This document shows positions 5,479 through 31,357 of a DNA stretch of 36,858 bases, in pieces (the first letter of the stretch is position 1; the number at the start of each line of letters is the position of its first letter). The notes under the pieces are model-generated. The model had not been told where the DNA came from. It worked only from the letters and a program-made list of their open reading frames with translations, and made no database searches. Source of the stretch: Actinomycetes bacterium (GTDB taxonomy: Bacteria; Actinomycetota; Actinomycetes; S36-B12; UBA5976); the NCBI GenBank assembly GCA_046086025.1, contig JBJSWT010000046.1, positions 1 through 36,858 of the forward strand, read 5' to 3'. Position numbers and translations under genes: made by a program.

Positions 5479-5512
5479 TTACTTATATAAATCGATAAAA
5501 TGTGAGGCTTAC

Positions 5513-7060: not shown

Positions 7061-7107
7061 GTATTGGGTGTAAATTTCTAATCTAAAGAGCGTAGTCTTG
7101 GATAACT

Positions 7108-7503
7108 ATGACAAACATTGACTGGCAATTACTAAGAAGCCAAGCGAAGATAGCTCAGCAAAATGCCTATGCAAGTTATTCAAATTTTCCAGTAGGAGCA
7201 GCTGCATTAGTTGATGATGGCAGAGTTGTCACAGGTTGCAATGTAGAAAATGCATCATATGGTTTAACTCTTTGTGCTGAATGTGGTTTAGTTTCTCAAC
7301 TTGCATTAACTGGTGGGGGAAGACTAGTCGCATTTTCTTGTGTTGGTCCTGAACCAGGAATTTTGTTACCTTGTGGAAGATGTAGACAATTACTTCAAGA
7401 ACACGGTGGAAGTGATTTATTAATTGATCACAATGATGGTCCAAAAAAACTAAGTGCACTTCTTCCAGATGCTTTTGATGGAAGTAACTTACATAAAAAA
7501 TGA
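7108..7503 (+). CDS. cdd: Cytidine deaminase (homotetrameric type)
   Basis: YSNFPVGAA, GCNVEN, CAE and PCGRCRQ zinc motifs. Confidence 0.95.
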   Translation: MTNIDWQLLRSQAKIAQQNAYASYSNFPVGAAALVDDGRVVTGCNVENASYGLTLCAECGLVSQLALTGGGRLVAFSCVGPEPGILLPCGRCRQLLQEHGGSDLLIDHNDGPKKLSALLPDAFDGSNLHKK

Positions 7504-11565: not shown

Positions 11566-11660
11566 AACTCTTGTTAACACTAGTAACATTTGTTTCATAA
11601 CGCTTTTATCACGTAATTGAATTCACCTAGATATATAGAAAAAAATTAACCTTCGTAGCG

Positions 11661-11695
11661 TAGGGTTTAAGCATCAGTCGTATTTTGCAACTGAT
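11661..11695 (+). promoter_or_regulatory. Putative -10 element and 5' leader hairpin of the ABC transporter operon
   Basis: TAGGGT at 11661-11666 is followed by an ATCAGT...ACTGAT inverted repeat. AAGGAG precedes ATG 11741. Confidence 0.4.
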
Positions 11696-11740
11696 TCAAA
11701 AAGTTCCCACAAGGAATGACAACAAAAGGAGCAATACTAA

Positions 11741-12814: not shown

Positions 12815-12842
12815 TCAAAACAGTTAATTAGCGACAGAATGT

Positions 12843-12875
12843 AAGTGGGACGCAAGATTTCCTTGCGTCCCACTT
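12843..12875 (+). terminator. Intra-operon 14-bp stem-loop (partial terminator or mRNA stabiliser)
   Basis: Perfect inverted repeat AAGTGGGACGCAAG-ATTTC-CTTGCGTCCCACTT followed by TCTT, between the binding protein and first permease genes. Confidence 0.8.
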
Positions 12876-12902
12876 TCTTAAGTTAAGAACGGAATTTTTT
12901 AA

Positions 12903-13997: not shown

Positions 13998-13999
13998 TA

Positions 14000-14989
14000 A
14001 TGGATTTTATAAGAGAAAATAAAAAACCAATTATTACTTTAATTTTAGTAGCCATTGTTGCTTACACTTTTTACTTTTTAGATGAAATAAAAACAACATC
14101 TGTCTTAGTTTTCGGTTGGGGATATGCAGTTCCCTTAGTTCTTGCTGCAATGGTTGGAATTATTGGTGAAAGAACAGGTGTTGTAAATATTGGCATCGAA
14201 GGTCAAATGTTGATGGCAGCATTTGCTAGTTTCTTTGGCTCAGTTTTTACAGGAAATATTTATCTTGGAATTTTGATTGGTATTTCAGCTGGTTTGTTAA
14301 TGGGAGCATTTTTAGCTGTAGCTGCTGTTAAATGGGAAATGGATCAAATAATTGCTGGCGTTGTCATAAATATTGTCGCTGCAGGTTTAACATCATTTTT
14401 TTACGCTCAAGGAAAAACTCTTCCAGATTTAATGCCTGTTGTTTCAATTCCTTTGCTTAGTCAAATTCCATTAATTGGACCTGTGTTTTTTAGAAATGGT
14501 TTATTTGCACTTTCCACACTATTTATAGTTGCCGCTGTTTATTATGGATTATTTAAAACAAGATGGGGCTTAAGAAGTAGAGCAGTTGGAGAATATCCAA
14601 GTGCTGCAGATGCAGCAGGAATAAATGTCACAAGGATTCGCATGCTAAACGTAACTTTTGCAGGAGCTTTAGCAGGTTGTGCCGGTGCATTTTTAGCACT
14701 TGAAGCAGCTGGAACTTTTGCTAGAGGAATTACTGCTGGCCGAGGATTTTTAGCATTAGCCATCATGATTTTTGGTGCTTGGAATCCACTCGGAGCACTT
14801 GCCGCAGCATTGTTTTTTGGTTTATCAACAGCAATTGCAAGTCAATTACAAGCAGATGAAGTAATAAATATTCCTCAACAATTTGTTAATTTGCTCCCAT
14901 TTGTAATGACACTTGTTGTTTTAGCGATCGCAGTAGGAAGAGTAAGACCGCCTGCGGCAGCTGGTCAGCCTTACACAAAGGAAGGCTAG
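14000..14989 (+). CDS. Nucleoside ABC transporter permease (NupC/NupQ-like)
   Basis: ERTGVVNIGIEGQM, GLRSRAVGE.P.AA, GRGFLALA and P.A.G.PY motifs. The track start is 13985; ATG 14000 is more likely. Confidence 0.92.
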   Translation: MDFIRENKKPIITLILVAIVAYTFYFLDEIKTTSVLVFGWGYAVPLVLAAMVGIIGERTGVVNIGIEGQMLMAAFASFFGSVFTGNIYLGILIGISAGLLMGAFLAVAAVKWEMDQIIAGVVINIVAAGLTSFFYAQGKTLPDLMPVVSIPLLSQIPLIGPVFFRNGLFALSTLFIVAAVYYGLFKTRWGLRSRAVGEYPSAADAAGINVTRIRMLNVTFAGALAGCAGAFLALEAAGTFARGITAGRGFLALAIMIFGAWNPLGALAAALFFGLSTAIASQLQADEVINIPQQFVNLLPFVMTLVVLAIAVGRVRPPAAAGQPYTKEG

Positions 14990-14995
14990 TTCAAA

Positions 14996-16507
14996 TTGAA
15001 TCAGCCACTAATTGAAGCAAAAAACTTAGTCAAAAAATTTCCTGGAGTTTTGGCAAACGATAACGTCTCTTTAACTTTAAATAAAGGTGAAATAGTTGCT
15101 TTGCTTGGTGAAAATGGTGCAGGAAAATCAACTTTAGTAAAAATGATTTATGGCCTTTATGGTGCAGATGAAGGTGAATTATTTATAAAAGGTGAAAAAG
15201 TAAATATGAAATCACCAGCTGATGCGATAGCTCGAGGTATTGGCATGGTGCACCAACACTTTCAATTAGTACCAGTTATGAGTGTTGCAGAAAATATTGC
15301 ACTAGGTGCAGAAAAAACTAGGGGAATTAATTTTGATTTAGAGGCAGCAGAAAAAGAAGTTGCACAGTTATCCAAAGATTATGGCTTAGAAGTTGATCCA
15401 ACTGCCCGAATCGAAGATTTACCTGTTGGCATGCAACAAAGAGTTGAGATTTTGAAAATGCTTTATAGAAAAGCCGATATTTTAATTATGGATGAACCAA
15501 CAGCTGTTTTGACTCCGCAAGAAACTGATGAATTGTTAAAAACAATGAAAAGTTTTGCGGAAAAAGGTGTGGGTGTAATTTTTATTACCCATAAATTACG
15601 CGAAGTTTTAGCAGTTGCAGATCGTGTTGTGGTTTTAAGAAATGGAAAAGTTGTAGGAACCACGGAACCAAAAAACACAGATCAAGAAGGACTTGCAACC
15701 ATGATGGTTGGAAGAAGTGTTGTTTTAGATGTTCAAAAATCAGTTGCTAAACCAAATGATGTGATCTTAAAAGTAAGTAATTTAAATGTCACAGATGATA
15801 GAAAATTACTTGCAGTAAAAGATTTATCTCTTGAAGTTAGAGCTGGTGAAATTCTTGGGATAGCAGGAGTTGAAGGAAATGGGCAAAGAGAATTAGTTCA
15901 AGCAATAACTGGCTTAAGAAAAATTGATTCAGGAACAGTTCTAATAAACAACGTGGATGCCACGAAATTAAGCCCTCATAAAATTCATGAATTAGGTGTT
16001 GCACATGTTCCTGAAGATAGAGAAAAAGATGGATTAGTTGCTGGATATTCGATTGCTGATAATTCTGTTTTAAACAGATTTGATGAAAAAGAATTCTCAA
16101 AAGCAGGAGTTAGACAATTTGGGGCAATTAGAGCTTTAGCAAAGAAATTAGTGGAAAAATTTGATGTAAGAACACCTTCAATTGATACTTCTGCCGGATC
16201 TTTATCCGGTGGTAATAAACAAAAATTAGTTATCGCAAGAGAACTAATTTGGAATCCAAAACTATTAATTGCTGCTCAACCTACCCGTGGAGTAGATGTT
16301 GGTTCCATTGAATTTATTCATAACCAAATAGTGGCAGCAAGAGACTCAGGATCGGCTGTTTTGTTAGTTTCTGCAGAACTAGATGAAGTTTTAGGTTTAG
16401 CAGATCGAGTAGCAGTTATGTATGCAGGAAAAATTGTTAAAATATTAGATGAAAAAGATGCTGAAAGAAATAAAGTAGGAAGATTAATGGCCGGCGGAGA
16501 CGCCTAA
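14996..16507 (+). CDS. Nucleoside ABC transporter ATP-binding protein (CUT2 family, two NBDs)
   Basis: GENGAGKST, DEPT, LSGGNKQK and QPTRGVD motifs. Confidence 0.95.
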   Translation: MNQPLIEAKNLVKKFPGVLANDNVSLTLNKGEIVALLGENGAGKSTLVKMIYGLYGADEGELFIKGEKVNMKSPADAIARGIGMVHQHFQLVPVMSVAENIALGAEKTRGINFDLEAAEKEVAQLSKDYGLEVDPTARIEDLPVGMQQRVEILKMLYRKADILIMDEPTAVLTPQETDELLKTMKSFAEKGVGVIFITHKLREVLAVADRVVVLRNGKVVGTTEPKNTDQEGLATMMVGRSVVLDVQKSVAKPNDVILKVSNLNVTDDRKLLAVKDLSLEVRAGEILGIAGVEGNGQRELVQAITGLRKIDSGTVLINNVDATKLSPHKIHELGVAHVPEDREKDGLVAGYSIADNSVLNRFDEKEFSKAGVRQFGAIRALAKKLVEKFDVRTPSIDTSAGSLSGGNKQKLVIARELIWNPKLLIAAQPTRGVDVGSIEFIHNQIVAARDSGSAVLLVSAELDEVLGLADRVAVMYAGKIVKILDEKDAERNKVGRLMAGGDA

Positions 16508-16510
16508 ATA

Positions 16511-17617
16511 ATGGATGAAAAATTAACTTTTGAAGTTCTAAAAACTGTTCCAAAAGTACTTCTTCACGATCATTTAGATGGGGGAGTAAGACCAAGCACT
16601 GTTGCTGATTTAGCAATTAAAAATGGTTATAAAGATTTACCAACTACTGATCCAGTTGAATTAGCGAAATGGTTTAGACAAGCTTGCGATTCAGGTTCGT
16701 TAGAAAAATATTTAGAAACTTTTGTTCACACCGTGGGGGTGATGCAAACTGTTGAAAGCATAAAAAGAGTGGCCTTTGAAGCAGGTGAAGATTTAGCAAA
16801 TGATGGTGTTGTTTATGCAGAAATAAGATTTGCACCAGAACTTCACCAAAATAATGGATTAACACTAGATCAAGTAGTTGAAGCAGTTATCTCTGGATTT
16901 AATCAGGCTGAATTGCAAATGAGAAGTCAAGGAAAGCCAATAGTTATAAGAGCACTATTAACTGCGATGAGAACTGCAGCAAGATCTAGTGAAATTGCTG
17001 AATTAGCAGTTAAGTGGAGAGAAAAAGGTGTGGTTGGTTTTGATATCGCAGGCAAAGAAGCAGGTTTTCCACCAACTAGGCATTTAGATGCATTCGATGC
17101 TGTAAGAAGAGCAAATTTTCATATGACAATTCATGCTGGTGAAGCTTTTGGTTTACCTTCAATATGGGAAGCTGTACAAATTTGTGGCACTGATCGCTTA
17201 GGTCATGGAGTAAGAATTGTTGATGATTTAAGTTTTCAATCAAATGGTGAAATTAAATTAGGTGAATTATCTGCATACGTAAGAGATAAAAGAGTACCTT
17301 TGGAACTTTGTCCCTCATCAAATATTCAAACCGGTGCTGCCAAAAGCATTAAAGAACATCCCATTGGCGTTTTAACTAAATTAGGTTTTCGAGCCACAGT
17401 TAATACTGATAATCGTTTAATGTCTGATACATCTATGACTAAAGAAATGTATTTGTTAGTAACGGAACTAGATTTTACTTTAAAACAGTTACAATGGCTT
17501 AGTGTAAATGCCATGAAAAGTGCATTTATCCCTTTTGATCAAAGACTAAAATTGATTAATGAAACAATAAAACCAAAATATGCTCAAATTGCTAAAGATT
17601 TAAGTATTTCTTTTTAA
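16511..17617 (+). CDS. add: Adenosine deaminase
   Basis: [27 protein letters not shown] and NTDN motifs. Confidence 0.95.
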
Positions 17618-18459
17618 AATCCTCTAGGGTGCCAAACAGTTTTAGTTTCTAAAAATGATTTTATTCTGGTTAAGTCATCAATTTTAGAGTTTGGTCTAAT
17701 TACTCTTTTTAGGTTGCTTGCACAATCTTTTTCTAAACTTAAAGCTAGTTTTCTATCAATTACTCCAGTTAAATCAAAAGCATTTACATCTAAATGTGTT
17801 GCAAGCCATGGTGCTATTTCTTCATAGTCACCCGTCAAAATATTTACAACTCCTGCAGGAACATCACTTGTTGCAATAACTTCAGAAAGTGTTATTGCGG
17901 TTAATGGTTGAGTTTTTGAAGCGATCACGATGCAAGTATTTCCACTTAGAATAATTGATCCAATAGTTTTCACTAAATTAAGTAGAGGTTGTTCCTTGCC
18001 ACTAACTGCAGCAACTACGCCAGTTGGTTCAGGAACTGAAAAATCAAAGAAAGGACCAGCAACTGGATTGTTTGAACCTGTAACCATGGCAAGTTTGTCA
18101 GTCCAACCTGCAAACCAAACCATTTTGTCTATGGCATCTTGAACTTCCATTTTTACTTGAGATTTATTTTTATTCCATAACGAAAGTTCTTCTACAAATT
18201 GGTCAAATCTTCCTTGCATCATTTCAGATATTCGATAAAGAACTTGACCTCTGTTGTAAGCAGTTGCTTCTGACCATTTACTAAAAGCACTTCGTGCAGC
18301 AACAACAGCATCGCGGGCATCTTTTCTTGAGCCAAGAGCTACGTTTGCTACAAAGTTTTTATTCTTATCGAAAACTTCATAAGTTCTACCTGATTCAGAT
18401 CTAGGAAATGCTCCACCTATAAATAATTTGGCAGTTCTTTTAACGTCTAAATTAGTCAT
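17614..18459 (-). CDS. Truncated aldehyde dehydrogenase (Rossmann domain only, ALDH16 C-terminal-like)
   Basis: 281 aa with the N-terminal ALDH fold ([14 protein letters not shown]), jumping to KTVWHP. There is no ELGG motif or catalytic Cys. Confidence 0.85.
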
Positions 18460-19895
18460 TATTTTCCTGCCTTTAAATAAGGTTCTAAACCGTGACGGCC
18501 ACCTTCTCGGCCATAACCAGATTCTTTATAACCACCAAAAGGACTTGTTGGATCAAATTTATTAAAGGTATTTGCCCAAATAACACCTGCTCTTAATCTG
18601 TGAGCTACTTCTAGAATTCGGGAACCTTTTTCTGTCCAAATTCCAGCACTTAAACCATATGGAGTGTTATTTGCTTTTTCAATTGCTTCATCAGGAGTTC
18701 TAAAAGTTAGAACACTTAAAACTGGTCCAAATATTTCTTCACGAGCAATTCGATGAGATAAAGAAACATTTGTAAATACAGTTGGTGCAAACCAAAATCC
18801 TTTATTTGGAATTTCACAAGGAGCAGACCATATTTGAGCCCCTTCTTTAGTTCCAGATTCTGCTAGTTCTTTAATTTTTTGTAATTGACCTGAAGAATTA
18901 ATTGCTCCTACATCAGTATTTTTATCTAAAGGATCTCCAAGTCTTAAAGTTTTCATTCGTTGATACAGCAGATCTAGGAAATTATCAGCAATTGATTCTT
19001 GTAACAATAATCTTGAACCAGCGCAACAAACATGTCCTTGATTAAAAAATATTCCGTTGACCACACCTTCAACTGCTTGGTCCATTGCAGCATCATCAAA
19101 AATTATGTTGGCAGCTTTTCCACCTAATTCAAGTGTTACTTTTTTATTAGTTCCTGCAACACTTTGAGCAATTAGTCTTCCAACTTCGGTGGAGCCCGTG
19201 AATGCAATTTTGTCTATATCTGGATGGTCAACTAAATATTTACCAGTTTCACCAGCGCCAGTAACAATATTTACAACTCCGTCTGGAAGTTCTGCCTGTT
19301 GGCAAATTTCTGCAAATAAAAGTGCAGTTAGAGGTGTAGTTTCTGAAGGTTTTAAAACGACTGTGTTTCCGGCGGCAAGTGCGGGAGCAATTTTCCATGA
19401 AAGCATAAGTAATGGAAAGTTCCAAGGAATAATTTGTCCAGCAACACCAAGTGGGGAGGGATTTTTTCCTAAACCAGCATGATCTAATTTGTCAGCCCAA
19501 CCTGCATAGTGAAAGAAATGTGCTGCAACTAAAGGAATATCAATATCTCTACTTTCCCTGATTGGTTTTCCGTTGTTCATTGATTCTAAAACGGCTAATT
19601 CGCGAGATCTTTCTTGAATAATTCTTGCTAAACGAAATAAATATTTTCCTCTTTGACTACCGGTCAACTTAGACCAAGTTCTAAAAACTTTTCTTGCTGA
19701 TCTAACTGCCAAATCGACATCTTGTTGACTAGCTTCAATAATTTCAGCTAAAACTTCTTCAGTTGCAGGATTTATTGTTTTATAAGTTTTACCACCGATT
19801 GATTTAATAAATTTTCCGCCAATAAATAGTTGATAATTATTTTTTAAATCAACTATTTTTGTTGATTCAGGAGCAGGTGCATATTCAAAAACCAT
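18459..19895 (-). CDS. Aldehyde dehydrogenase, probably oxidising acetaldehyde from DeoC
   Basis: PWNFP, KPSE, FTGST, LELGGK, FNQGHVCCAG, EEIFGP and FGGYKESG motifs. Confidence 0.93.
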   Translation of the reverse strand: MVFEYAPAPESTKIVDLKNNYQLFIGGKFIKSIGGKTYKTINPATEEVLAEIIEASQQDVDLAVRSARKVFRTWSKLTGSQRGKYLFRLARIIQERSRELAVLESMNNGKPIRESRDIDIPLVAAHFFHYAGWADKLDHAGLGKNPSPLGVAGQIIPWNFPLLMLSWKIAPALAAGNTVVLKPSETTPLTALLFAEICQQAELPDGVVNIVTGAGETGKYLVDHPDIDKIAFTGSTEVGRLIAQSVAGTNKKVTLELGGKAANIIFDDAAMDQAVEGVVNGIFFNQGHVCCAGSRLLLQESIADNFLDLLYQRMKTLRLGDPLDKNTDVGAINSSGQLQKIKELAESGTKEGAQIWSAPCEIPNKGFWFAPTVFTNVSLSHRIAREEIFGPVLSVLTFRTPDEAIEKANNTPYGLSAGIWTEKGSRILEVAHRLRAGVIWANTFNKFDPTSPFGGYKESGYGREGGRHGLEPYLKAGK

Positions 19896-19896
19896 A

Positions 19897-20859
19897 TTAA
19901 TCTACCGTCACATAATCTGGTCCAGAATAAGAACCAGTTTTTAGTTTTTGTCTTTGCATTAAAAGATCATTCAATAAACTCGAAGCACCAAATCTAAATA
20001 AATCTGGAGTAAGCCATCTATCGCCCAAAGTTTCTTTTACTAAAACTAAATATTTCATTGCATCTTTAGTAGTTTTAATTCCTCCAGCAGGTTTCATGCC
20101 AATAATTTTTCCGGTAGCTCTTTCAAATTCATTTATTGCTTGAAGCATCACAAGTGTTACAGGCAAAGTTGCTGCAGGTTGAACTTTTCCAGTTGATGTT
20201 TTTATAAAGTCAGCACCCGCAAGCATTGCAATCCAAGAAGCTTTTTTTATGTTGTCGTAAGTTTTTAATTCACCAGTCTCAAGAATTACTTTTAAATGAG
20301 CACTTTTACATGCTTCTTTGATGGTAAGAATTTGTTCATAAATATCAAAGAATCTTCCCTCATGAAATGCTCCACGATCGATAACCATGTCGATTTCATC
20401 TGCTCCTTGAGAAACAGCATCATTTGTATCTTGTAATTTTGCAGCTAAAGAAACTCTTCCTGCAGGAAATCCTGTTGCAACAGCTGCAACCTTAATATTT
20501 GTGCCAGTTAAGTTTTCTTTTGCAATTGATACTAAATCACTATAAACACAAACCGCTGCAACACTTGGAACAGAATTATCTAATGGATCTGGTCTTCTTG
20601 CTTTTGCACAAAGAGTTTTAACTTTGCCTTTTGTGTCCATTCCTTCAAGTGTTGTTAAATCAATCATTCGAATTGAAAGATCAATTCCTTCTTTTTTTGC
20701 AGTGGTTTTAATTGATCTAGTTGCTAATTTGGCAGCTCTTTCTTCAACGCCCACTTTGTCAACACCGGAAAGCCCATTTAGAAATTTTTTCAGAGACTCT
20801 TCATTTTTTGTCGCATCACTTAGAAGGCTGGGAAGTTGCGTTAAGTAATTAGTGCTCAC
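19897..20859 (-). CDS. deoC: Deoxyribose-phosphate aldolase (long type)
   Basis: IDLTTL, ADEIDMV, KVILETGEL, FIKTSTGK, KPAGG and RFGASSL motifs; TACGCT-N6-GTG leaderless start. Confidence 0.96.
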   Translation of the reverse strand: MSTNYLTQLPSLLSDATKNEESLKKFLNGLSGVDKVGVEERAAKLATRSIKTTAKKEGIDLSIRMIDLTTLEGMDTKGKVKTLCAKARRPDPLDNSVPSVAAVCVYSDLVSIAKENLTGTNIKVAAVATGFPAGRVSLAAKLQDTNDAVSQGADEIDMVIDRGAFHEGRFFDIYEQILTIKEACKSAHLKVILETGELKTYDNIKKASWIAMLAGADFIKTSTGKVQPAATLPVTLVMLQAINEFERATGKIIGMKPAGGIKTTKDAMKYLVLVKETLGDRWLTPDLFRFGASSLLNDLLMQRQKLKTGSYSGPDYVTVD

Positions 20860-20888
20860 AGCCCTAGCGTATCCAATGGCTTATTTAG

Positions 20889-22520
20889 TCAGTATTTGCT
20901 GAGTAATTCTTGCATTTTTTCGGCTAGTTTATTAATTCTTTGGTTAGCTTTTTCTAAATTAATATCAACATCTCCTGCAGAAGTAAATACTTCTAAATAA
21001 CACTTTAATTTAGGTTCAGTGCCACTTGGGCGAATTATCATTCTTCCATTATTGAAAGTTAAGCGAACTCCAGAAGAAGCAGGAAGATTATCTATACCTT
21101 TATTCATATCCTCAACTTTTTCAATTACAAATTCATCTATTTCTTTTGGAGCATTAGTTGTCAATTTGATTGTTATATCTTTTGCTTTTTCAACCGAATC
21201 AAACCTAAAACTTACCTGTTTGGTTACATGTACTCCGTAGTCTTCATAAATTTCATTCAAAATATCTGTTGCTTCTAAGTTTTGTCTTTTTAGATATGAA
21301 AATAATTCGACTAGTAAAAGTGCTGTTGCCACACCATCTTTATCTTTGACAAATTCTGGATCTACACAATAGCCAATTGCTTCTTCATAACCAAAAATTA
21401 AATTTTCAATATGACCCATCCATTTAACACCGGTAAGAGTGGTAGTTCCAGTTAATAAATTATTTTTAGCCATTTTTGGCACTAAGGAACTTGAAACAAT
21501 TGAAGCTGCAATTTTTCCAGATAATTTCTTATTTTCTAATTCTGCTTTTTTTAATATCCACCAAGTGATTAGATAACCAATTTCATCTCCAGTTAAAACC
21601 TTCCAATTTCCTTTATCTTTAACTGCTAAAGCACACCTGTCGGCATCTGGATCATTTGCAATTGCGATATCGGCATTTTTTGATTTTGCAAGAGCAAGCA
21701 ATAAATCCATTGCTCCCTTTTCTTCAGGATTTGGAAAAGAAACGGTGGGAAAATCTGGATTTGGTTTAGTTTGTTCCAAAACATCAAATGATTTAGAAAA
21801 TCCTACTTTTTTCATACATCTATCAAATGTTTCTTGACCAACGCCATGCATAGGAGTATAAGCAACTTTTAAATCGCCATATTTATTTGAGATAACTTGA
21901 GATATTCTTTCGACATATTCCTCAACTAGATCAATTTGATTGTAATTATTTGACTTTTTAATTTCATCTGCAAAAGGAGCAAGTTTTATTAAGGATGCAA
22001 TTTCTTTATCCATGGGAGGAATAATTCCTGCACCAAATTCATCATAAACTTTGTAACCATTATCTAAAGGAGGATTATGCGATGCAGTAATCATGACACC
22101 GGCATCTGCTTTAATGTGTCTTACTCCAAAAGCTAAAACTGGAGTAGGAATTTTTGTAGGTAATTTATAAACTTCAAGACCTAAGCTTGCAGCAACTTGG
22201 CAAACATCATGTGCAAATTCATCAGACATATGTCTTGCATCATTACCAACAATTAATTTAGGTTTTTTATTTGGATATTTTTTGATTAAGTATTGGCATA
22301 ATCCATAAGTGGCTCTTATAACAACTGCTCTATTCATTCTGGATTGACCAGGACCAATTTCTGCTCTTAAGCCGGCAGTGCCAAACTCTAAGTCGCCTGA
22401 AAATATTTTGTTTAATTCAACTAAATTGTTATCTTCTATTAATTTTAAAATTATATTTTTAGTATTTGCATCAGGATCATGTTCTGCCCAGGATTTAGCT
22501 AAATGAATAACATCTGACAT
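20889..22520 (-). CDS. Alpha-D-phosphohexomutase family enzyme, probably acting as phosphopentomutase
   Basis: FGTAGLR, TASHNP, DPDADR, GYEE and RPSGTEPK motifs; located between PNP and deoC. Confidence 0.9.
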   Translation of the reverse strand: MSDVIHLAKSWAEHDPDANTKNIILKLIEDNNLVELNKIFSGDLEFGTAGLRAEIGPGQSRMNRAVVIRATYGLCQYLIKKYPNKKPKLIVGNDARHMSDEFAHDVCQVAASLGLEVYKLPTKIPTPVLAFGVRHIKADAGVMITASHNPPLDNGYKVYDEFGAGIIPPMDKEIASLIKLAPFADEIKKSNNYNQIDLVEEYVERISQVISNKYGDLKVAYTPMHGVGQETFDRCMKKVGFSKSFDVLEQTKPNPDFPTVSFPNPEEKGAMDLLLALAKSKNADIAIANDPDADRCALAVKDKGNWKVLTGDEIGYLITWWILKKAELENKKLSGKIAASIVSSSLVPKMAKNNLLTGTTTLTGVKWMGHIENLIFGYEEAIGYCVDPEFVKDKDGVATALLLVELFSYLKRQNLEATDILNEIYEDYGVHVTKQVSFRFDSVEKAKDITIKLTTNAPKEIDEFVIEKVEDMNKGIDNLPASSGVRLTFNNGRMIIRPSGTEPKLKCYLEVFTSAGDVDINLEKANQRINKLAEKMQELLSKY

Positions 22521-23318
22521 TTAAATTTTTTCAATTACTTTCTTTAATAAATTACCCATTTTTGTAGCAGAAGCTAAACCTGCAGCTAACACTTCTTCGT
22601 GATTTAATCTTTCTTTAGTTAAGCCAGCACCAGGATTTGTAACTAACGAAATTCCCAAAACTTCAGCATTAGCTTCTCTTGCCGCAATTGCTTCAAGGGC
22701 TGTTGACATCCCAACCATGTCGCCACCAATTTTAATTGCCATTTGTACTTCAGCTGGAGTTTCATATTGGGGTCCATGAAATTGAACATAAACACCTTCA
22801 TTTAATGAAGGTTCAATTTCTTTAGCAATATTTCTTAATCTTTGCGAATAAACTTCACTAACATCTAAGAATCTTGCTCCAATTAATGGAGTTGCTCCAG
22901 TTAAATTTATGTGATCTTTTATGAGAACTGGGGTTCCAGGTTTCCATTCCAATCGAAGTCCACCGCAAGCATTAGTCAAAATTACAGTTTTAACTCCATG
23001 ATTTATTGCAGTTCTAACTGCATGAACTACTGCAGGTACACCTTTTCCTTCGTAATAATGGGTTCTACCCATTTGGACCAAAACATTTTTATTGCCAATT
23101 TTTACACTTCTTAATTTTCCGCTATGGCCTTCAACTGAAGGGGCAGAAAATCCTGGCAGTTTTGAAACTGAAATTTCAAATTGCGCTTTCCCTAAAGCAT
23201 CTGCAGCTGGTGTCCAGCCAGAACCTAATACAACAAGGACCTCATGATTTGAAACATTTGTTAACTTAGTTAACTCTTGTGCAGATTGTTTAGCTAATTC
23301 ATAAGGATCTTGGCTCAC
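22521..23318 (-). CDS. punA: Purine-nucleoside phosphorylase (trimeric, inosine/guanosine type)
   Basis: VLGSG, GRTHYYEG, GPQYETPAE, VGMST and VTN motifs; TAGCGT-N6-GTG leaderless start. Confidence 0.94.
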   Translation of the reverse strand: MSQDPYELAKQSAQELTKLTNVSNHEVLVVLGSGWTPAADALGKAQFEISVSKLPGFSAPSVEGHSGKLRSVKIGNKNVLVQMGRTHYYEGKGVPAVVHAVRTAINHGVKTVILTNACGGLRLEWKPGTPVLIKDHINLTGATPLIGARFLDVSEVYSQRLRNIAKEIEPSLNEGVYVQFHGPQYETPAEVQMAIKIGGDMVGMSTALEAIAAREANAEVLGISLVTNPGAGLTKERLNHEEVLAAGLASATKMGNLLKKVIEKI

Positions 23319-23368: not shown

Positions 23369-24165
<797 letters not shown>

Positions 24166-25197
24166 TTACTTTAACTCCATCTTGTGTAGTTGTCTTATTT
24201 TTTCTTTAATTCTTTCAATACTTGGGACTACTGTTTGTTCCAATACTGGAGTAACTGGTAGAGGTACATCATAGGCAGCAATTCTTTGTACTGGTGCTTT
24301 TAGTTTGGAGAAACAGTTTTGTGAAATTAAGGCAGCAACTTCAGCTCCCCAGCCACCTGTAAAAGTATCCTCGTGGGCTATTAAAGCTTTACCTGTTTTA
24401 TTTACTGACTCATAAATAGTTTTGGTGTCTAGGGGAAGTAAAGAAACTGGATCTATAACTTCACATTCGATTCCTTCAATTTTAAGTTCTTCTGCAGCTG
24501 CAAGACATCTGTATAAAGTTAAATGAGTTGAAATTATTGTCAGAGAATTTCCATCTCTTTTTTTCAGTGCTTTTCCAATGGGAAATAAATACTCTTCTTC
24601 AGGAACTTCAGCAGTTAAATCCATACCACCTGCAGATTCTCTACCTTTACTTCCATAAAGCAACTTATGTTCAAAGACAATTACTGGATCATCATCTCTG
24701 ATGGCACTTTTCATGATGCCTTTTGCAACATATGCATCAGAAGGGCAAACTACTTTTAAACCAGGAACATGTATGAAATAACTTTCTGGAGATTGACCAT
24801 GTTGGGCACCTCTATTAGCAGTGCCAACAGGGCAGCGAAGGGTCAAAGGTACTTTTAATTTTCCACCCGACATATATCTCATCTTTGCTGCTTGGTTAAC
24901 AATTTCATCCATACATTCAAAAATAAAATCTGAATATTGTAAATCTGGAATAGGTCTCATTCCCATTAATGCAGCACCCACAGATGTTCCAATAATTGCT
25001 TTTTCACTAATTGGGGTATCAATAATTCTTTCGTGGCCAAATTTTTCAGGTAATCCTAAATAAACTCCAAAAGCACCACCAAAACCACCAGGAATTCCAA
25101 TATCTTCACCAATGAGAAATACATTTTCATCTCTTTGCATTTCTTCTGCAATTGCTTCTCTTATTGCTTCACCAATTCCAATTCTTCGTGTGGTCAT
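24166..25197 (-). CDS. ThDP-dependent dehydrogenase E1 beta subunit (AcoB/PdhB-like)
   Basis: GEDI, DTPISE, NQAAK, AQH.QS, PGLKVV and FEHK motifs. Confidence 0.92.
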   Translation of the reverse strand: MTTRRIGIGEAIREAIAEEMQRDENVFLIGEDIGIPGGFGGAFGVYLGLPEKFGHERIIDTPISEKAIIGTSVGAALMGMRPIPDLQYSDFIFECMDEIVNQAAKMRYMSGGKLKVPLTLRCPVGTANRGAQHGQSPESYFIHVPGLKVVCPSDAYVAKGIMKSAIRDDDPVIVFEHKLLYGSKGRESAGGMDLTAEVPEEEYLFPIGKALKKRDGNSLTIISTHLTLYRCLAAAEELKIEGIECEVIDPVSLLPLDTKTIYESVNKTGKALIAHEDTFTGGWGAEVAALISQNCFSKLKAPVQRIAAYDVPLPVTPVLEQTVVPSIERIKEKIRQLHKMELK

Positions 25198-26213
25198 TAT
25201 TTTTGAACCTCAGTTGGTGAACTCATGTCTGAGGCATACGCATCAATAAAGGCATCTTCAGCTTTTGGAAATGGTGATTGTTGCGCAAATACCACTGCAT
25301 CATCAATTTCTTCTTGAATATTCTTAACAATTAATGCAAAAGCTTCATTATCAATTAAGTTATTTTCGATAAGGGAATCTTTCATCCGATCTATGGGATC
25401 AAGTGTTCTCCAGTAGTCTTCCTCTTCTTTAGTTCTATATTTTTTAGCGTCACCTCTGCTGTGACCTGCAAAGCGATATGTTTTAGCTTCAATCAAGATC
25501 GGTCCTGAACCATTTGCAATGGCATCTCTTGCTTCTTTCACCGCTAAATAAACTTCAACCACATTCATGCCATCAACAATTTTTGAAGTCATGCCATAAC
25601 TACCTACTCTGTCAGCCACATTTTCCACAAGAGTGGTTTTGTTATAAGCAGTTGAGGCACCGTAAATATTGTTTTCGCACACATAAATAATTGGTAATTT
25701 TTGAATTGCTGCAAGATTTAATCCCTCATGAAACGCACCTTCATTTGTGGCACCTTCACCAAAAAAACATGCAGCAACTTGTTTAGTGTTTTTCATTTTG
25801 AAAGCTAAACCAACTCCAGTAACAATGCTTACTCCACCTGCCACAATTGCAATTGCTGGAAGCATTCCAACTTCAGGATCACCCAGATGCATGGATCCAC
25901 CTTTTCCTTTACAGCATCCAGTTTCTTTGCCATAAAGTTCTGCCATTGCAGAACGCATCGAAACACCTTTTGCGATGGCGTGTCCATGTGGTCGATGAGT
26001 TGAAGTAATCCAATCTGTTTTATTTAATGCTGTGCAAACACCAACAGCAACTGCTTCTTGGCCTTGGTATTGATGAATTGTTCCAGGAAGTTCACCTTTT
26101 AAAAATAATTGATAAACTTTATCTTCAAATTTTCTAAGTCTTATAACGTCTGTGAAAAGAGAAATTAATAATTCTTTGTCTAAATTATTTAAATTAATGG
26201 ATCTTTCAACCAT
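25197..26213 (-). CDS. ThDP-dependent dehydrogenase E1 alpha subunit (AcoA/PdhA-like)
   Basis: GQEA, STHRPHGH, GKGGSMH, GEG...ENN ThDP motif and TYRFAGHS. Confidence 0.92.
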   Translation of the reverse strand: MVERSINLNNLDKELLISLFTDVIRLRKFEDKVYQLFLKGELPGTIHQYQGQEAVAVGVCTALNKTDWITSTHRPHGHAIAKGVSMRSAMAELYGKETGCCKGKGGSMHLGDPEVGMLPAIAIVAGGVSIVTGVGLAFKMKNTKQVAACFFGEGATNEGAFHEGLNLAAIQKLPIIYVCENNIYGASTAYNKTTLVENVADRVGSYGMTSKIVDGMNVVEVYLAVKEARDAIANGSGPILIEAKTYRFAGHSRGDAKKYRTKEEEDYWRTLDPIDRMKDSLIENNLIDNEAFALIVKNIQEEIDDAVVFAQQSPFPKAEDAFIDAYASDMSSPTEVQK

Positions 26214-27109
26214 TATTTTGCTTTCCCATTTGATCCATAAAGGTGAATAAATTTTTTAACATTTCTTTTTATTCCAACTTTTCCTTGCTCTAAGAAATCT
26301 TTTTCTTTATGTGAACCTACAATATCGTGAATAAATGGTTCAGGTTCTAAACCTAAAACATACTTTCTAACTTCATTAAAAAAGTCAGTTTTCAACCTTG
26401 TGCCGACATTAAATTTTGAGACTCCATTTTCAATAGATGATTTTATTTGATCATCTGGAAAACCCGTTCCACCATGAACAGCAATGGGAATATCAACTTG
26501 TTTCTTAATCTCTTTTAATCTTTCAATATTAATATTTGCACTACCTTTGGTTAATAGATGCACATTGCCAATAGCAACTGCCAAACAATCGATTCCTGTT
26601 TCTTCAACAAATTGTTTTGCTTCAAGAGGATCTGTCATATAAGAATGGGCGTCTACTATTTCACCTCCAAGATAATCAGGCAAACTTCCAAATTCAGCTT
26701 CAACTTCCACATTATTTTTATGAGATTCTTCAACTAATTTTTTAACTGCTTTTTTAGCATCTTCAACTGGCCATCTATGACTATCAATCATGACCGTATT
26801 AAATCCAACTTCAATTCCTTTTAAGGCTTGCTCTAGCGTGTGAGTTTCATTAAGTAAAAAAGCAACTGGTACTGAACATTTTTCTAACATGGCTTTTCCA
26901 CTTGCACCCAAGAAGGAAATACCTGTTTTATTTAGCCAATTGTCTTCCAACATTGTGGCCCCAAAGCCCATGATGATGGGAGATTTTTCTTCTTCAGCAG
27001 TTTCTAAAATGGCTTCAAACGAATAACTATCCCAGCTTTCAAAATATCCAACTGCATATTTATTTTTTGCAGCATCGTTTAGAAGAGTTGACATTGAAAC
27101 TAAAGTCAT
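26213..27109 (-). CDS. Class II fructose/tagatose-bisphosphate aldolase family protein with atypical active site
   Basis: VMID, VEAEFG, TDP.EA, LAVAIGNVH, VHGGTG and KFNVGT motifs are present. The HLDH motif is replaced by LLNE. Confidence 0.88.
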   Translation of the reverse strand: MTLVSMSTLLNDAAKNKYAVGYFESWDSYSFEAILETAEEEKSPIIMGFGATMLEDNWLNKTGISFLGASGKAMLEKCSVPVAFLLNETHTLEQALKGIEVGFNTVMIDSHRWPVEDAKKAVKKLVEESHKNNVEVEAEFGSLPDYLGGEIVDAHSYMTDPLEAKQFVEETGIDCLAVAIGNVHLLTKGSANINIERLKEIKKQVDIPIAVHGGTGFPDDQIKSSIENGVSKFNVGTRLKTDFFNEVRKYVLGLEPEPFIHDIVGSHKEKDFLEQGKVGIKRNVKKFIHLYGSNGKAK

Positions 27110-27110
27110 A

Positions 27111-28094
27111 TCAATTAATAACTTTCAACTTTTGCATTTCTACTTGAGCTTTTGATCTACTAAAAAGGGTTGTGTTACAGCCTAATCCTTGGCAAACAGA
27201 TGCTCCTAAGACTGCTCCAAATTTTAAAGATTCAGTTAAAGGCCAAGATTCACTTATTCCTATAGCCATACCTGCAGTAAAAGCATCTCCTGCACCTGAA
27301 CCGTCAACAAAATCAATTTCGTAAGGTTCTATTCGAAAAAATTCTTTTGAATCTCTATATATGACGCCATTAGTTCCACAAGTAATTGCAGCAGCATTTA
27401 CACCCCAATCTAGAAAACATTTAGATTGCTCTTGGGGATTTTCAATTCCAGTAAGAACTTCTGCTTCGTCATCATTGGGAAAGAAATAATCTACATATGG
27501 TAGGACATCTTGAACTTTTTCAACTAGTTTAGTTTCATCACTTGAAATCGCGATATCTAAAATAATTGTGTAATTTTGTTTCTTTAAATTTTTTAGCAAT
27601 TGAGCTAATTCCTTTGATTCAATCTTAGGCATCAATAAATATCCACCAAGAATAAAGATTTTAGAATCGTTTGTGAATAAGTAATTATTTATTCCACTTT
27701 CTAAATTAGCTACATTAAAATCTGCATTTGCTCCAAAATAATGGATATATCTACGATCTTGATTTTGAACAGGAATAATTATTGTTTGTGAAGTGGAAGA
27801 ATTTTGAGATTTAAAAATTGCATTTGTATTGATGTGCTCATTTATTAAAGAATCAATTAAATTTTTTCCCATGGAATCATTTCCAACCATGCCGATGATT
27901 CCTGTTTTTTTGCCTAAACGAGAAAGTGCAATTGCGGTATTAGCAGCACAACCTCCAACTTGATGAATTGGTTCACCCATTTTTAAAAGCTCACCTTCGT
28001 GAGGCAGTCGAGATAAAGGTGGTAAAAAAATGTCAGAAACAATAATTCCGGCACAAATAATTTCTAGATTTTTTTGGCCAGAATCTGATTGCAT
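27111..28094 (-). CDS. PfkB family carbohydrate kinase
   Basis: GGCAANTA, FFPNDDEA and DGSGAGDAF motifs. The track TTG start at 28130 coincides with the -35 box, so ATG 28094 is preferred. Confidence 0.9.
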   Translation of the reverse strand: MQSDSGQKNLEIICAGIIVSDIFLPPLSRLPHEGELLKMGEPIHQVGGCAANTAIALSRLGKKTGIIGMVGNDSMGKNLIDSLINEHINTNAIFKSQNSSTSQTIIIPVQNQDRRYIHYFGANADFNVANLESGINNYLFTNDSKIFILGGYLLMPKIESKELAQLLKNLKKQNYTIILDIAISSDETKLVEKVQDVLPYVDYFFPNDDEAEVLTGIENPQEQSKCFLDWGVNAAAITCGTNGVIYRDSKEFFRIEPYEIDFVDGSGAGDAFTAGMAIGISESWPLTESLKFGAVLGASVCQGLGCNTTLFSRSKAQVEMQKLKVIN

Positions 28095-28130
28095 TTCATC
28101 ACTATAGAAGTTTTTAACAAGTAAGGTCAA
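28095..28130 (-). promoter_or_regulatory. Leaderless sigma-A promoter of the six-gene sugar operon
   Basis: On the minus strand: TTGACC-N18-TATAGT-N6-ATG. Confidence 0.7.
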
Positions 28131-28289: not shown

Positions 28290-29732
<1,443 letters not shown>

Positions 29733-29747
29733 AAGTATTTATTAATT

Positions 29748-29781
29748 AATTAAGGGCCAGAATTTCTTCTGGCCCTTAATT
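29748..29781. terminator. Bidirectional intrinsic terminator between guaB1 and the NCS2 permease
   Basis: Perfect 15-bp inverted repeat AATTAAGGGCCAGAA-TTTC-TTCTGGCCCTTAATT followed by a T run, between convergent genes. Confidence 0.88.
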
Positions 29782-29805
29782 TTTACCCTAGGTAAATAAC
29801 GACTT

Positions 29806-31245
29806 TTAGGAAAGCCAATTGTTTAGTGGGTATGATGCGAAATAAATTACGAAGGCAATTGCAGATGCCCATAGCAATGGGTGAATCTGTTTTGATTTGC
29901 CAGTCGCAAGTTTTAGCAACACATGTGTCACAAATCCTGCACCAATACCTACTGCAATTGAGTATGTAAATGGCATCAAGATAATTGTCAAAAATGCTGG
30001 AAGAGCAATTGTTATATCGCTCCAATCAATATCTTTGATTTGTGTCATCATTAAGAATCCAACAATTAATAATGCTGGAGTTGCAGCTTCGTAAGGAACC
30101 AAAGCAACAAGTGGTGAAAGGAAAGTTGTTAACAAAAATGCAATACCAGTAACAACACTTGCTAAACCAGTTCTTGCACCTTCTCCCACACCTGAAGCAG
30201 ATTCAATGTAAGAAGTATTTGAAGAAATACCACTTGCACCACCTGCCATAGCTGCAATTGAATCCACTAACAAAATACGATCTGCACCTTCAACGTTGCC
30301 GCTTCTATCTGTTAATCCTGCTTCTGCACCAATAGCAGTCATTGTGCCCATGGTGTCAAAGAAGTCAGTAATTAAAAGAGTGAAGACTAACAACACAGCA
30401 GTTACTAAACCTGCAGTTGCAAATCCACCAAATAAATCAAAACGTCCTAACAAACTAAAGTCAGGTGTGGCAATTATGGAACTTGGAATTGCCGGAACGT
30501 TAAGGTTCCATCCACTTGGATTTACTTTGTCTGGAGCAGTAAATAAAGGTCCAATTTTAAATACGGATTCAAGAATTACTGCAAGCACTGTTGCAGCAAT
30601 AACTCCTATTAAAATTGCTCCTTTTGTTTTTGTGGAATACAAGATTGCAATCAAGATCAGACCAAAGATAAATACCACAACTGGCCAACCAACGAGATTG
30701 CCTCCGGCACCTAATTCAACTGGAACTGGTCCAGATTGAGTTCTGCGCACAAATCCTGCATCCACCAAGCCAATAAGCGCGATGAATAAACCAATACCAA
30801 CAGAGATAGCTAGTTTTAATTGAGTTGGTACTGCTTTAAATACAGCAACACGAAAACCAGTAAGAACTAGAACGGTGATGATGATGCCTTCAAGCACCAC
30901 TAATCCCATTACTTGTTCCCATGGCATGTAATTTGCTGCAAGTCTTGCCACGAATGCGTTGATGCCTAACCCAGTTGCAAGAGCAAGTGGGAAATTAGCA
31001 ACAGCACCCATCAATATGGTTAAAATTCCAGCAACTAAAGCAGTTGCAGCTGCAATTGCTGGAAGATTAGGTGCATCTCCGCCACCTAAGAACTTTCCAT
31101 TCACATCTTGAGTAAATCCAAGAATGAGTGGATTAAGTACCACAATGTAGGCCATCGTTAAGAAGGTCACAAGACCTCCACGAATTTCTTGGCCGACACT
31201 GGATTTTCTTTGCTTTATTTTGAAATAACCCGCTAATGTTGCCAC
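29806..31245 (-). CDS. NCS2 / AzgA-PbuG type purine base permease
   Basis: TMAYIVVLNP, FFDTMGT and SSNTSYIES..G..GARTGL motifs. GTG 31245 follows GGAGG; the track start is 31317. Confidence 0.92.
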   Translation of the reverse strand: MATLAGYFKIKQRKSSVGQEIRGGLVTFLTMAYIVVLNPLILGFTQDVNGKFLGGGDAPNLPAIAAATALVAGILTILMGAVANFPLALATGLGINAFVARLAANYMPWEQVMGLVVLEGIIITVLVLTGFRVAVFKAVPTQLKLAISVGIGLFIALIGLVDAGFVRRTQSGPVPVELGAGGNLVGWPVVVFIFGLILIAILYSTKTKGAILIGVIAATVLAVILESVFKIGPLFTAPDKVNPSGWNLNVPAIPSSIIATPDFSLLGRFDLFGGFATAGLVTAVLLVFTLLITDFFDTMGTMTAIGAEAGLTDRSGNVEGADRILLVDSIAAMAGGASGISSNTSYIESASGVGEGARTGLASVVTGIAFLLTTFLSPLVALVPYEAATPALLIVGFLMMTQIKDIDWSDITIALPAFLTIILMPFTYSIAVGIGAGFVTHVLLKLATGKSKQIHPLLWASAIAFVIYFASYPLNNWLS

Positions 31246-31246
31246 T

Positions 31247-31311
31247 AGTGTTTTTTTCCTCCCCTGTATTACTTGCGCATCAAGTAATAAGGCAAAGGAT
31301 TCCAGAACACT
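31247..31311 (-). promoter_or_regulatory. Structured 5' leader of the permease with the SD inside a hairpin
   Basis: Core stem TATTACTTG-ATGCG-CAAGTAATA, extended by CCT/AGG, TCCTTT/GGAGGA and AGTGTT/AACACT. Confidence 0.55.
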
Positions 31312-31357
31312 GGACACTTTGGACCTAGGACACTCTTAGGTATTTGTTAAAAATTTG

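Follow-up and report, generated by a model that had tools for sequence, protein, structure and literature searches.

An Asn-Glu subfamily of class II aldolase-fold proteins co-inherited with a ketose kinase and an E1/lipoyl system

Introduction

What reaction does a class II aldolase-fold protein carry out when Asn and Glu stand in place of the catalytic Asp and a zinc-ligand His, and why does its gene lie beside genes of a thiamine diphosphate (ThDP)-dependent E1 enzyme? The question is raised by a stretch of 36,858 nucleotides (hereafter, the window) from an Actinomycetes bacterium, comprising positions 1 to 36,858 of contig JBJSWT010000046.1 in assembly GCA_046086025.1. It encodes such a protein, which we call NE after the replacing pair; homologues with the canonical pair are called D-H. 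Here, we describe NE as a distinct monophyletic subfamily of PF01116, in which the replacement is a family-wide rather than a one-off change. We further find that NE is co-inherited with a ketose kinase and an E1/lipoyl system and is functionally tied to both.

NE occurs in very abundant freshwater Nanopelagicales and is encoded on numerous metagenome contigs from soil, peat and lakes. Annotation pipelines name the protein 'fructose-bisphosphate aldolase class II', a label that misreads central carbon metabolism in NE genomes. No description of the NE subfamily or of its gene cassette was found in the literature searched, a search that left most subscription journals and supplements outside. 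The component families are all well known, and their combination in the cassette is apparently undescribed.

Results

Replacement of the catalytic Asp-His pair

The gene and its replaced residues lie at the following positions of the window.

26213..27109, minus strand: NE-type class II aldolase-fold protein of 298 amino acids (ATG start; PF01116; predicted fold)
26846..26851, minus strand: codons of Asn87-Glu88, the pair found where canonical class II aldolases have their catalytic Asp and a zinc-ligand His
27038..27040, minus strand: codon of Glu24, at the canonical Asn of the AFN motif; acidic in every NE-clade member examined

Pfam PF01116 covers the protein end to end (1.3e-65; 222 bits against a cut-off of 25.5), and the translation contains the motifs GYFESWD, VPVAFLLNETH, EAEFGSLPDYLGGE, AIGNVH, AVHGGTG and SKFNVGT. 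The HLDHG motif of the family reads LLNETH, with Asn87 for Asp and Glu88 for His (the codons were checked), and the AFN motif reads YFE, with Glu24 for Asn. The metal histidines H184 (AIGNVH) and H212 (VHGGTG) are present, as are K232-F-N234 and E137-A-E139. The window protein also has the buried metal-site residue E139 (Glu174 in E. coli) and the phosphate/ketone site formed by HGG[ST]G and K-x-N. In E. coli FbaA, Asp109 protonates or deprotonates the C4 oxygen and His110 is a rigid zinc ligand, as stated in excerpts of a 2024 review (PMC11194214), from which the identities and roles of Asp109, His110, Glu174 and Glu182 were taken. Asn87 is aligned at the position of this catalytic Asp. At the positions of the three zinc-ligand histidines (E. 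coli His110, His226 and His264), the first residue is Glu88 and the others are H184 and H212.

In a phmmer search of all PDB chains, the top match was Bacillus anthracis Fba (3q94; 2.3e-49), where VPVAFLLNETHTLE aligned without gaps to vpvaiHLDHGssfe; Asn87 and Glu88 therefore occupy the homologous positions of the canonical Asp and His. NE did not reach the curated cut-off of any NCBIfam class II aldolase model, the best being TIGR01859 (207.6 versus 343.05 bits), and the cbbA subfamily model gave 186.6 versus 215.6 bits. Its matches in the ESM Atlas were exclusively 'class II FBA family' clusters.

NE has the TIM-barrel fold of class II aldolases. A model computed with AlphaFold2 from 43 NE-type sequences, which informs on the fold only, reached a predicted local distance difference test score (pLDDT) of 95.6 and a predicted template modelling score of 0.93. 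The model superposed on class II aldolases: 3q94_A ranked first (template modelling score (TM) 0.88/0.91), and the SqiA sulfofructose-phosphate aldolases, AgaY and YdjI came next. Its least confident part is residues 141-160 (blocks at pLDDT 83 and 81). Within this low-confidence region lies the loop 142-158, where canonical enzymes carry the mobile-loop Glu that deprotonates dihydroxyacetone phosphate (E. coli Glu182); in the NE clade, this loop varies in length and sequence and has no conserved acid.

One clade with a single change of state

A HMMER scan of 1.84 billion cluster representatives gave 5087 matches at E<=0.001. The best 150 of these 5087 representatives (50% identity) together with the query comprised 64 N-E, 83 D-H and one S-K sequence and three that were gapped. 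In a FastTree phylogeny of 133 full-length rows, 48 NE and 85 D-H sequences were split by one branch (Shimodaira-Hasegawa (SH)-like support 97), corresponding to a single state change. A single change was again obtained with IQ-TREE from a random 28 NE and 32 D-H rows after columns 24, 87 and 88 had been removed (SH approximate likelihood-ratio test (SH-aLRT) 81). Neither tree placed a canonical Asp-His sequence inside the NE clade.

The residues N87, E88, H184 and H212 were carried by 86/86 copies of NE in the gene cassette described below. Position 24 was acidic in all 48 full-length NE representatives (E in 40, D in 8) and in 85 of the 86 cassette copies, the remaining one having a gap; E24 and W26 belonged to the scan pattern by which 80 of the 86 were retrieved, so that their conservation in those copies is not independent. 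The sole positions at least 80% conserved in NE with a different canonical majority were D87N, H88E and N24E/D. H184, H212, K232, N234 and E137 were conserved in the NE and canonical clades alike, and E139 was weaker in the NE clade (34 E and 9 Q of 48). Additionally, the NE clade has insertions at residues 55-59 and 263-271, and neither the Gly after the second metal His nor the catalytic-loop motif is conserved in it.

These results bear out what the initial annotation had seen in the window protein alone, namely that Asn-Glu replaces the catalytic Asp-His, that GNVH, VHGG and KFN are kept and that AFN reads YFE. Its suggestion that NE-type homologues might form a clade also proved right.

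Plasmid matches to NE amounted to 113 records, all below 40% identity, and those among the matches listed were of the canonical type. In a sample of 301 genomes from the phylum of an Acidobacteriota metagenome-assembled genome (MAG), there were no matches at E<=1e-85.

Linkage of NE to kinase, E1/lipoyl and cupin genes

In the window, NE comes second in a closely spaced series of eleven minus-strand genes, the first six of which are separated by only -1 to 1 nt. The order is pfkB, NE, E1 alpha, E1 beta, lipoyl, cupin, purine nucleoside phosphorylase, PGM-type mutase, DeoC and two aldehyde dehydrogenase (ALDH) open reading frames (ORFs).

Among 41 relatives, NE-type proteins were found in five genomes, four of the same genus (G000, G006, G008 and G013; 4 of the 19 genomes of that genus) and one of another genus (G024; 48% identity). 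The cassette E1 alpha had matches of at least 64% identity in exactly these five of the 41 genomes, the next best match being 46%; co-occurrence was thus 5/5 with NE versus 0/36 without. We also searched 401 genomes of the phylum with an NE profile and inspected the best 30 loci, of which 5 were NE-type (the source genome and four genomes of the family coded f31), 23 were D-H and 2 were unclassified (L099 and L101). The NE gene abutted E1 genes in 5/5 loci, namely the four of f31 and that of G024. Three of these five loci have a lipoyl domain fused to E1 alpha together with an FGGY kinase and a Lyx_isomer cupin, one carries a full E2, and G024, a relative of high guanine-cytosine (GC) content, has a fused E1 alpha-beta.

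Furthermore, a metagenome scan with an NE-specific peptide pattern yielded 80 loci at 42-99% identity, which were scored with the window's own proteins. E1 alpha was present in 53 of the 61 loci having at least 300 bp downstream of NE, and pfkB in 51 of the 64 having at least 300 bp upstream, where it lay directly upstream in most. Fifteen loci offered at least 3 kb upstream and at least 5 kb downstream; pfkB was found in 15 of them, E1 alpha in 14, E1 beta in 14, a lipoyl or E2 gene in 15 and the cupin in 11. Eight of the 61 loci had no E1 alpha in the available sequence. In two of the exceptional loci (L127 and L132), the gene order puts E1 past the contig end, and one (L130) has no E1 alpha despite 4.8 kb downstream.

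The cassette occurs in the orders pfkB-NE-E1a-E1b-E2-cupin, cupin-E1a-E1b-E2-pfkB-NE and NE-E1a-E1b-E2-...-pfkB-cupin, so that the pfkB-NE pair and the E1 genes persist across changes in gene order. A natural pfkB-NE fusion protein of 639 amino acids (a cluster of 11 sequences) retains GYFESWD and LLNETH. The link between NE homologues and E1/lipoyl genes, which the initial annotation had named as something to check, hence extends across distant lineages.

Long open frames upstream of pfkB/NE in high-GC loci were considered as further fusions and rejected on inspection.

Operon genes and partner proteins

The remaining features of the operon in the window are as follows.

27111..28130, minus strand: pfkB-family sugar kinase, first operon gene; best solved relative E. 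coli YdjH
25197..26213, minus strand: ThDP-dependent E1 alpha (PF00676); its start overlaps the NE stop by 1 nt
24166..25197, minus strand: E1 beta subunit (PF02779/PF02780)
23914..24165, minus strand: stand-alone lipoyl carrier of 83 amino acids with the lipoyl-lysine motif ETDKA (PF00364)
23369..23914, minus strand: cupin D-lyxose isomerase of the YdaE/TsLI type
17614..23318, minus strand: downstream operon genes (purine nucleoside phosphorylase, PGM-type pentomutase, DeoC, aldehyde dehydrogenase and a half-length aldehyde dehydrogenase ORF)

The genes at 17614..23318 are lineage-specific and lie outside the portable cassette. The last of them (17614-18459, minus strand; 281 amino acids) covers only the N-terminal half of the enzyme (6-232 of the 461 positions of the Pfam profile). 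It lies directly after the full-length ALDH gene and ends where the convergent adenosine deaminase gene ends, and the same half-length gene is present in L001, L002 and L115.

Among solved structures, the kinase is closest to E. coli YdjH (2.5e-29), which reportedly phosphorylates C1. Excerpts of PMC9602453 describe YdjH as the partner of the PF01116 aldolase YdjI and state that both prefer long-chain sugars with a carboxylate end. In f31, the pfkB gene is replaced by an FGGY kinase whose nearest solved relative is the autoinducer-2 (AI-2) kinase LsrK (2.3e-36), with gluconate kinase (1.3e-32) and glycerol kinase close behind. The cupin matches the D-lyxose isomerase of Thermofilum (TsLI; 7NZO) at 1.7e-66 and B. 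subtilis YdaE (2Y0O) at 7e-64. It has an Arg aligned to the TsLI specificity residue R175, assuming a 24-residue tag at the start of the 7NZO chain. TsLI is specific for D-lyxose/D-xylulose owing to Arg175, as given in excerpts of PMC8378251.

The window operon contains the parts of a 2-oxo-acid-dehydrogenase-type complex, with a ThDP-binding E1 alpha, an E1 beta with its catalytic His and a carrier with a lipoyl-lysine. The nearest solved relative of E1 alpha is human pyruvate dehydrogenase (PDH) E1 alpha (2e-55), and both E1 subunits match PDH and branched-chain enzymes with roughly equal scores. The ThDP-binding region of E1 alpha is intact (the G-E-G...E-N-N stretch), as is the catalytic His of E1 beta (AQHGQ), a residue whose role is described, as H128beta, in excerpts of PMC2663715. 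The first triplet of the ThDP stretch is G-E-G in the window and in G024, and G-D-G in the f31 copies.

A dedicated E2 acyltransferase core is absent from the window operon, which has only the 83-residue lipoyl protein; E2 cores lie elsewhere in the genome. Across the cassettes, the E2 catalytic domain has been lost repeatedly. A full E2 is present in 21 of the 39 judgeable loci, and the three tested (3/3) have lipoyl, E3-binding and catalytic domains. All seven short carriers tested (7/7) have lipoyl and E3-binding domains without the catalytic domain, the window and 5 other loci have a lipoyl-only carrier, and others have no separate carrier, their E1 alpha beginning with a fused lipoyl domain. 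Carriers that have lost the catalytic domain include those of L135, L138, L140, L146, L154, L157 and L167, those of L109-L111 and that of the window (23914-24165). An invariant L-x-Q-T-x-D-E near the N-terminus was seen in 11 of 11 aligned cassette lipoyl domains, which included stand-alone, E1-fused and E2 forms.

Neighbourhoods of the cassette and related gene clusters

The opposite strand upstream of the operon encodes nucleoside deaminases, phosphorylases and a Bmp-type ABC transporter. These belong to a nucleoside-scavenging island around the operon (window 1-17617 and 28290-31317), which comprises genes for cytidine deaminase, two PNP/UDP-family phosphorylases, an amidohydrolase, a short-chain dehydrogenase (SDR), pyrimidine nucleoside phosphorylase, a Bmp/PnrA ABC transporter, adenosine deaminase and a xanthine/uracil-family permease. 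The island also has a GuaB1-type GMP reductase (841 bits versus a cut-off of 549) and a second pfkB kinase (3557-4495). An Rfam scan of the window detected one tRNA only and no riboswitch ahead of the operon.

In f31, the cassette (L109, 6179-13658; L110, 3379-17578) lies among URO-D-like proteins, a fucose-isomerase-like protein, DUF4432 and sugar ABC permeases, and L110 has a second, canonical PF01116 gene (5044-6081). In G024, the NE-E1 genes (L113, on G024:C2, 13492-19861) adjoin a methyltransferase, an aminoglycoside-N-acetyltransferase-like protein, MaoC/SDR genes and a protein of 543 amino acids without a Pfam match; this neighbourhood differs and is possibly biosynthetic.

Peat and bog loci encode Aldolase_II (PF00596)-SDR fusions of about 690 amino acids (L140, 7830-9905; L153, 9253-11346; L154, 8360-10351; L175, 14102-16231). 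Such fusions lie inside or adjoin the cassette in 4 of 16 large loci, together with SorC-type regulators, and we take them to resemble the RhaEW fusions of rhamnulose-phosphate aldolase and lactaldehyde dehydrogenase.

Elsewhere in the genus, a canonical HLDHCP aldolase of PF01116 is encoded in a cluster (L196, on G017:C43, 8604-15537; also in G003, G008 and G012) with a HAD hydrolase, a Dak1/Dak2 kinase, a fused E1 alpha-beta (730 amino acids) and an E2 (416 amino acids). Nearby are RpiB, xylose-isomerase-like TIM barrels, DhaK/DhaL and a GFO/IDH/MocA oxidoreductase. The cluster is a second arrangement of kinase, PF01116 protein and E1/E2, possibly for tetrose or erythrulose metabolism.

Housekeeping enzymes of the source genome

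The source genome (1.3 Mb; 93% complete) has its closest genome records among Nanopelagicales-type Actinomycetes MAGs, and NE is its sole PF01116 match. It also encodes phosphofructokinase (PFK), a PF00274 class I aldolase candidate and transketolase, and it has AceE fragments at contig ends and two E2 cores elsewhere. A GlxK-type glycerate kinase is present as well, which is compatible with a glycerate product and does not discriminate between readings. Given the separate PFK, PF00274 candidate and AceE, NE is not the glycolytic aldolase and the cassette E1 is not the housekeeping PDH. We rejected the former assignment also on the occurrence of NE in 4/19 genomes of the genus and the latter also on the co-occurrence of E1 alpha with NE.

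Discussion

Proposed mechanism

Overall, after weighing these data, we tentatively favour, at somewhat less than even chances, a mechanism in which the ketose 1-phosphate made by the kinase is the substrate of NE. NE would turn it over through an enediolate, with no retro-aldol step of the classical, Asp-driven kind, and the E1/lipoyl system would cleave the product. The ketose 1-phosphate is probably D-xylulose 1-phosphate. NE retains the residues with which the family binds a 1-phospho-2-keto-3-hydroxy unit as an enediolate on the metal (two His, Glu137/139, HGG[TS]G and K-x-N). It has lost the Asp used on the C4 hydroxyl, and it has Glu for one metal His and Glu or Asp for the Asn of AFN. 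E1 is the cassette's sole other bond-breaking enzyme, and enzymes of the E1 type cut beside a carbonyl. The simplest reading is that NE employs the enediolate for a reaction other than the Asp-driven retro-aldol step and that E1 makes the cut.

In this putative scheme, the cassette would supply five portable functions: a D-lyxose isomerase, a ketose kinase, NE, E1 alpha/beta and a lipoyl carrier or E2. The cupin would convert D-lyxose to D-xylulose, and the YdjH-like kinase would produce a ketose 1-phosphate, most likely D-xylulose 1-phosphate. The similarity of the cupin and its R175-aligned Arg point to a pentulose substrate, and D-xylulose 1-phosphate is preferred because xylulose 5-phosphate would need no special pathway. 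NE would then remove the C3 proton to give a C2-C3 enediolate, with no classical Asp-driven retro-aldol step, and would release a rearranged or eliminated carbonyl compound. Finally, the ThDP enzyme E1 would cut a C-C bond and charge the lipoyl arm with an acyl group (probably acetyl), which would then pass to coenzyme A (CoA).

As to the carbonyl compound, the repeated loss of the E2 core suggests that the acyl group is accepted by a housekeeping E2, i.e., that it is acetyl, and hence that the substrate of E1 is a methyl ketone. If the enediolate shed its C1 phosphate, as happens in methylglyoxal synthase, exactly such a compound would arise, 1-deoxy-2,3-pentodiulose. The PDH-like E1 could split this methyl diketone, which resembles pyruvate, into acetyl-lipoyl and a C3 acid (glycerate). 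This is the detailed chemistry that we prefer, at about a third of the probability given to the general mechanism; alternatively, NE might catalyze 3-epimerisation, 2,3-keto isomerisation or 3,4-dehydration. The full diketone route has a low probability in our estimate: it would take a pentose to acetyl-CoA and a C3 acid by chemistry other than that of aldolase, transketolase or phosphoketolase, with NE as an eliminase yielding 1-deoxy-2,3-pentodiulose (the AI-2 precursor 4,5-dihydroxy-2,3-pentanedione) or its phosphate, and with E1 giving glycerate or 3-phosphoglycerate.

The initial annotation had interpreted NE as an enzyme that may have lost aldol cleavage while keeping enediolate chemistry, and as an epimerase, isomerase or other new activity beside a ThDP enzyme. 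The retained dihydroxyacetone phosphate (DHAP)-type phosphate and metal site, the lost Asp and the linkage to E1/lipoyl genes support this interpretation in part; epimerase and isomerase are only some of the possible reactions.

Several observations weigh against the mechanism that we favour. The NE clade invariably has an acid at position 24, and Glu24 could act as a retro-aldol base in place of the missing Asp; D or E is also found at this position in 16 of 81 canonical sequences, so that acidity there is compatible with aldolase activity. The phosphate-binding residues of NE are unchanged, and in related enzymes this geometry probably disfavours phosphate elimination. We know of no E1 alpha/beta complex that cleaves an alpha-diketone, the nearest precedent being acetoin cleavage. 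The Aldolase_II-SDR fusions of 4/16 large loci and the aldehyde dehydrogenases of the operon would suit an aldolase step that releases an aldehyde. Moreover, a canonical D-H aldolase lies near a kinase and E1/E2 in the same genus, which means that proximity to E1 alone does not require non-aldolase chemistry. Lastly, the position phosphorylated by the kinase is one that we infer.

Alternative explanations

The main rival explanation is that NE is still a retro-aldolase, with the base moved to Glu24 and a Glu/His/His metal site (perhaps for Mn, Fe, Co or Mg). It would then cleave D-xylulose 1-phosphate to DHAP and glycolaldehyde, and E1/lipoyl would dispose of the C2 aldehyde or of another downstream product. 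We regard this as somewhat less likely than the mechanism that we favour. The acid at position 24 is near-universal in NE (48/48 representatives; 85/86 cassette copies, pattern-selected in 80/86), its occurrence in canonical sequences fits as well, and NE still has the residues of the DHAP site. The PF01116 family acts on the 3S,4R configuration, which is that of D-xylulose 1-phosphate, and aldehyde-oxidising enzymes accompany NE in the window operon and in some soil cassettes. The pairing of kinase and aldolase is the norm of the family, as exemplified by YdjH/YdjI in excerpts of PMC9602453. However, an obligatorily co-inherited E1/lipoyl system has no precedented job under this explanation, aldehydes normally being oxidised by aldehyde dehydrogenases. 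YdjI and SqiA are among the top structural matches of NE, yet no Asp-His sequence falls inside the NE clade; such strict N-E invariance without Asp-His members suggests a mechanistic change rather than one of specificity. Furthermore, the loop that bears the proton-abstracting Glu is not conserved and is the least confident part of the model.

It is also conceivable, though rather improbable, that the E1/E2 genes encode an ordinary pyruvate or branched-chain dehydrogenase that merely shares the operon, and that kinase, isomerase and NE make up a plain three-step lyxose pathway. The about equal scores of E1 alpha and beta against PDH and branched-chain enzymes would agree with this, as would the canonical aldolase of the same genus that is also near E1/E2. 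Against it, the linkage outlasts changes in gene order, domain fusions and replacement of the kinase family; E1 alpha and NE co-occur in 5/5 versus 0/36 relatives; and the cassette genomes have their own AceE and E2.

Slimmer still is the chance that NE acts on the lipoyl arm itself. By a Claisen or retro-Claisen transfer between an acyl-DHAP-like diketone phosphate and a dihydrolipoyl thiol, as LsrF performs with CoA, a C4 base would be unneeded. Many cassettes lack the E2 catalytic domain, so that another enzyme must load or unload the lipoyl group, and the f31 FGGY kinase is most similar to LsrK. However, its margin over gluconate kinase is small (2.3e-36 versus 1.3e-32), E1 would be left without a role, and the transfer needs an oxidised sugar whereas the core cassette has no dehydrogenase.

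We give very little credence to NE as the glycolytic fructose-bisphosphate aldolase or as a dead or regulatory subunit like GatZ/KbaZ: although it is the sole PF01116 match in a 93%-complete genome, only 4 of the 19 genomes in the genus have it, the source genome encodes a PF00274 candidate and PFK at other sites, NE itself lies in a catabolic operon, and its putative ligands for metal and phosphate are strictly conserved, which speaks against a dead protein.

Significance

If E1 does cleave a sugar-derived carbonyl compound, as in the enediolate mechanism that we favour, both 2-oxo-acid-dehydrogenase-type complexes and the class II aldolase scaffold would gain chemistry beyond what is known for them, and the cassette would provide a compact module from C5 to C2-CoA and C3 for pathway engineering. 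If, additionally, the diketone route were true, this would be the first 2-oxo-acid-dehydrogenase-type complex acting on a sugar-derived diketone and a new function of the PF01116 fold. The route would then be common among freshwater acI Actinobacteria as well as bacteria of soil and peat. The parts of the cassette are small soluble proteins.

Comparison with known systems

NE shares its predicted fold (TM 0.88) and 30-38% identity with the class II (type B) aldolases of fructose and tagatose bisphosphate, such as B. anthracis Fba (3q94) and AgaY (1gvf). Two of the three metal His, the buried-site Glu, the HGG[ST]G loop and K-x-N are common to both. Unlike these aldolases, NE has Asp changed to Asn, His to Glu and Asn to Glu, carries the inserts 55-59 and 263-271, and has lost the Gly and the catalytic-loop motif; it scores below all curated NCBIfam cut-offs and is not the glycolytic enzyme of its genome.

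Similar to YdjH/YdjI and SqiK/SqiA, the cassette has a pfkB kinase directly upstream of a PF01116 protein, and YdjI (6ofu) and SqiA (8q57-8q5a) are among the best structural matches of the NE model. In contrast to NE, YdjI and SqiA are taken as true aldolases, on the names of the PDB entries and on excerpts of PMC9602453 and PMC11194214. Neither pair has an E1/lipoyl partner like that of the NE cassette.

In the Iol pathway of myo-inositol, the cupin isomerase IolB, the pfkB kinase IolC and the PF01116 enzyme IolJ are followed by IolA at the end. The NE cassette draws on the same families, with a cupin isomerase, a pfkB kinase (5.5e-38 against the IolC model) and a PF01116 enzyme. However, the kinase reaches 131 bits against the IolC cut-off of 300, the cupin belongs to the D-lyxose isomerase family, and the cassette ends in E1/lipoyl rather than IolA.

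Aldolase-related or enediolate-forming enzymes of ketose 1-phosphates or DHAP that eliminate water or phosphate instead of cutting C3-C4 exist in MtnB and methylglyoxal synthase, and the Lsr pathway (LsrK/LsrG/LsrF) converts a C5 diketone phosphate to a C3 phosphate and acetyl-CoA. MtnB (PF00596), methylglyoxal synthase and the Lsr enzymes have folds different from that of NE and no sequence relation to it, and the analogy is one of mechanism only.

The cassette is like the AcoABC and PDH complexes in having E1_dh, a transketolase-like beta subunit and a lipoyl domain, with the ThDP region and the beta His intact, and acetoin cleavage is a known case of an E1 cutting a carbonyl compound other than an acid. 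Unlike in those complexes, the cassette E1 is always paired with a sugar kinase and an aldolase-like protein, and many cassettes lack the E2 catalytic domain or have the lipoyl domain joined to E1 alpha.

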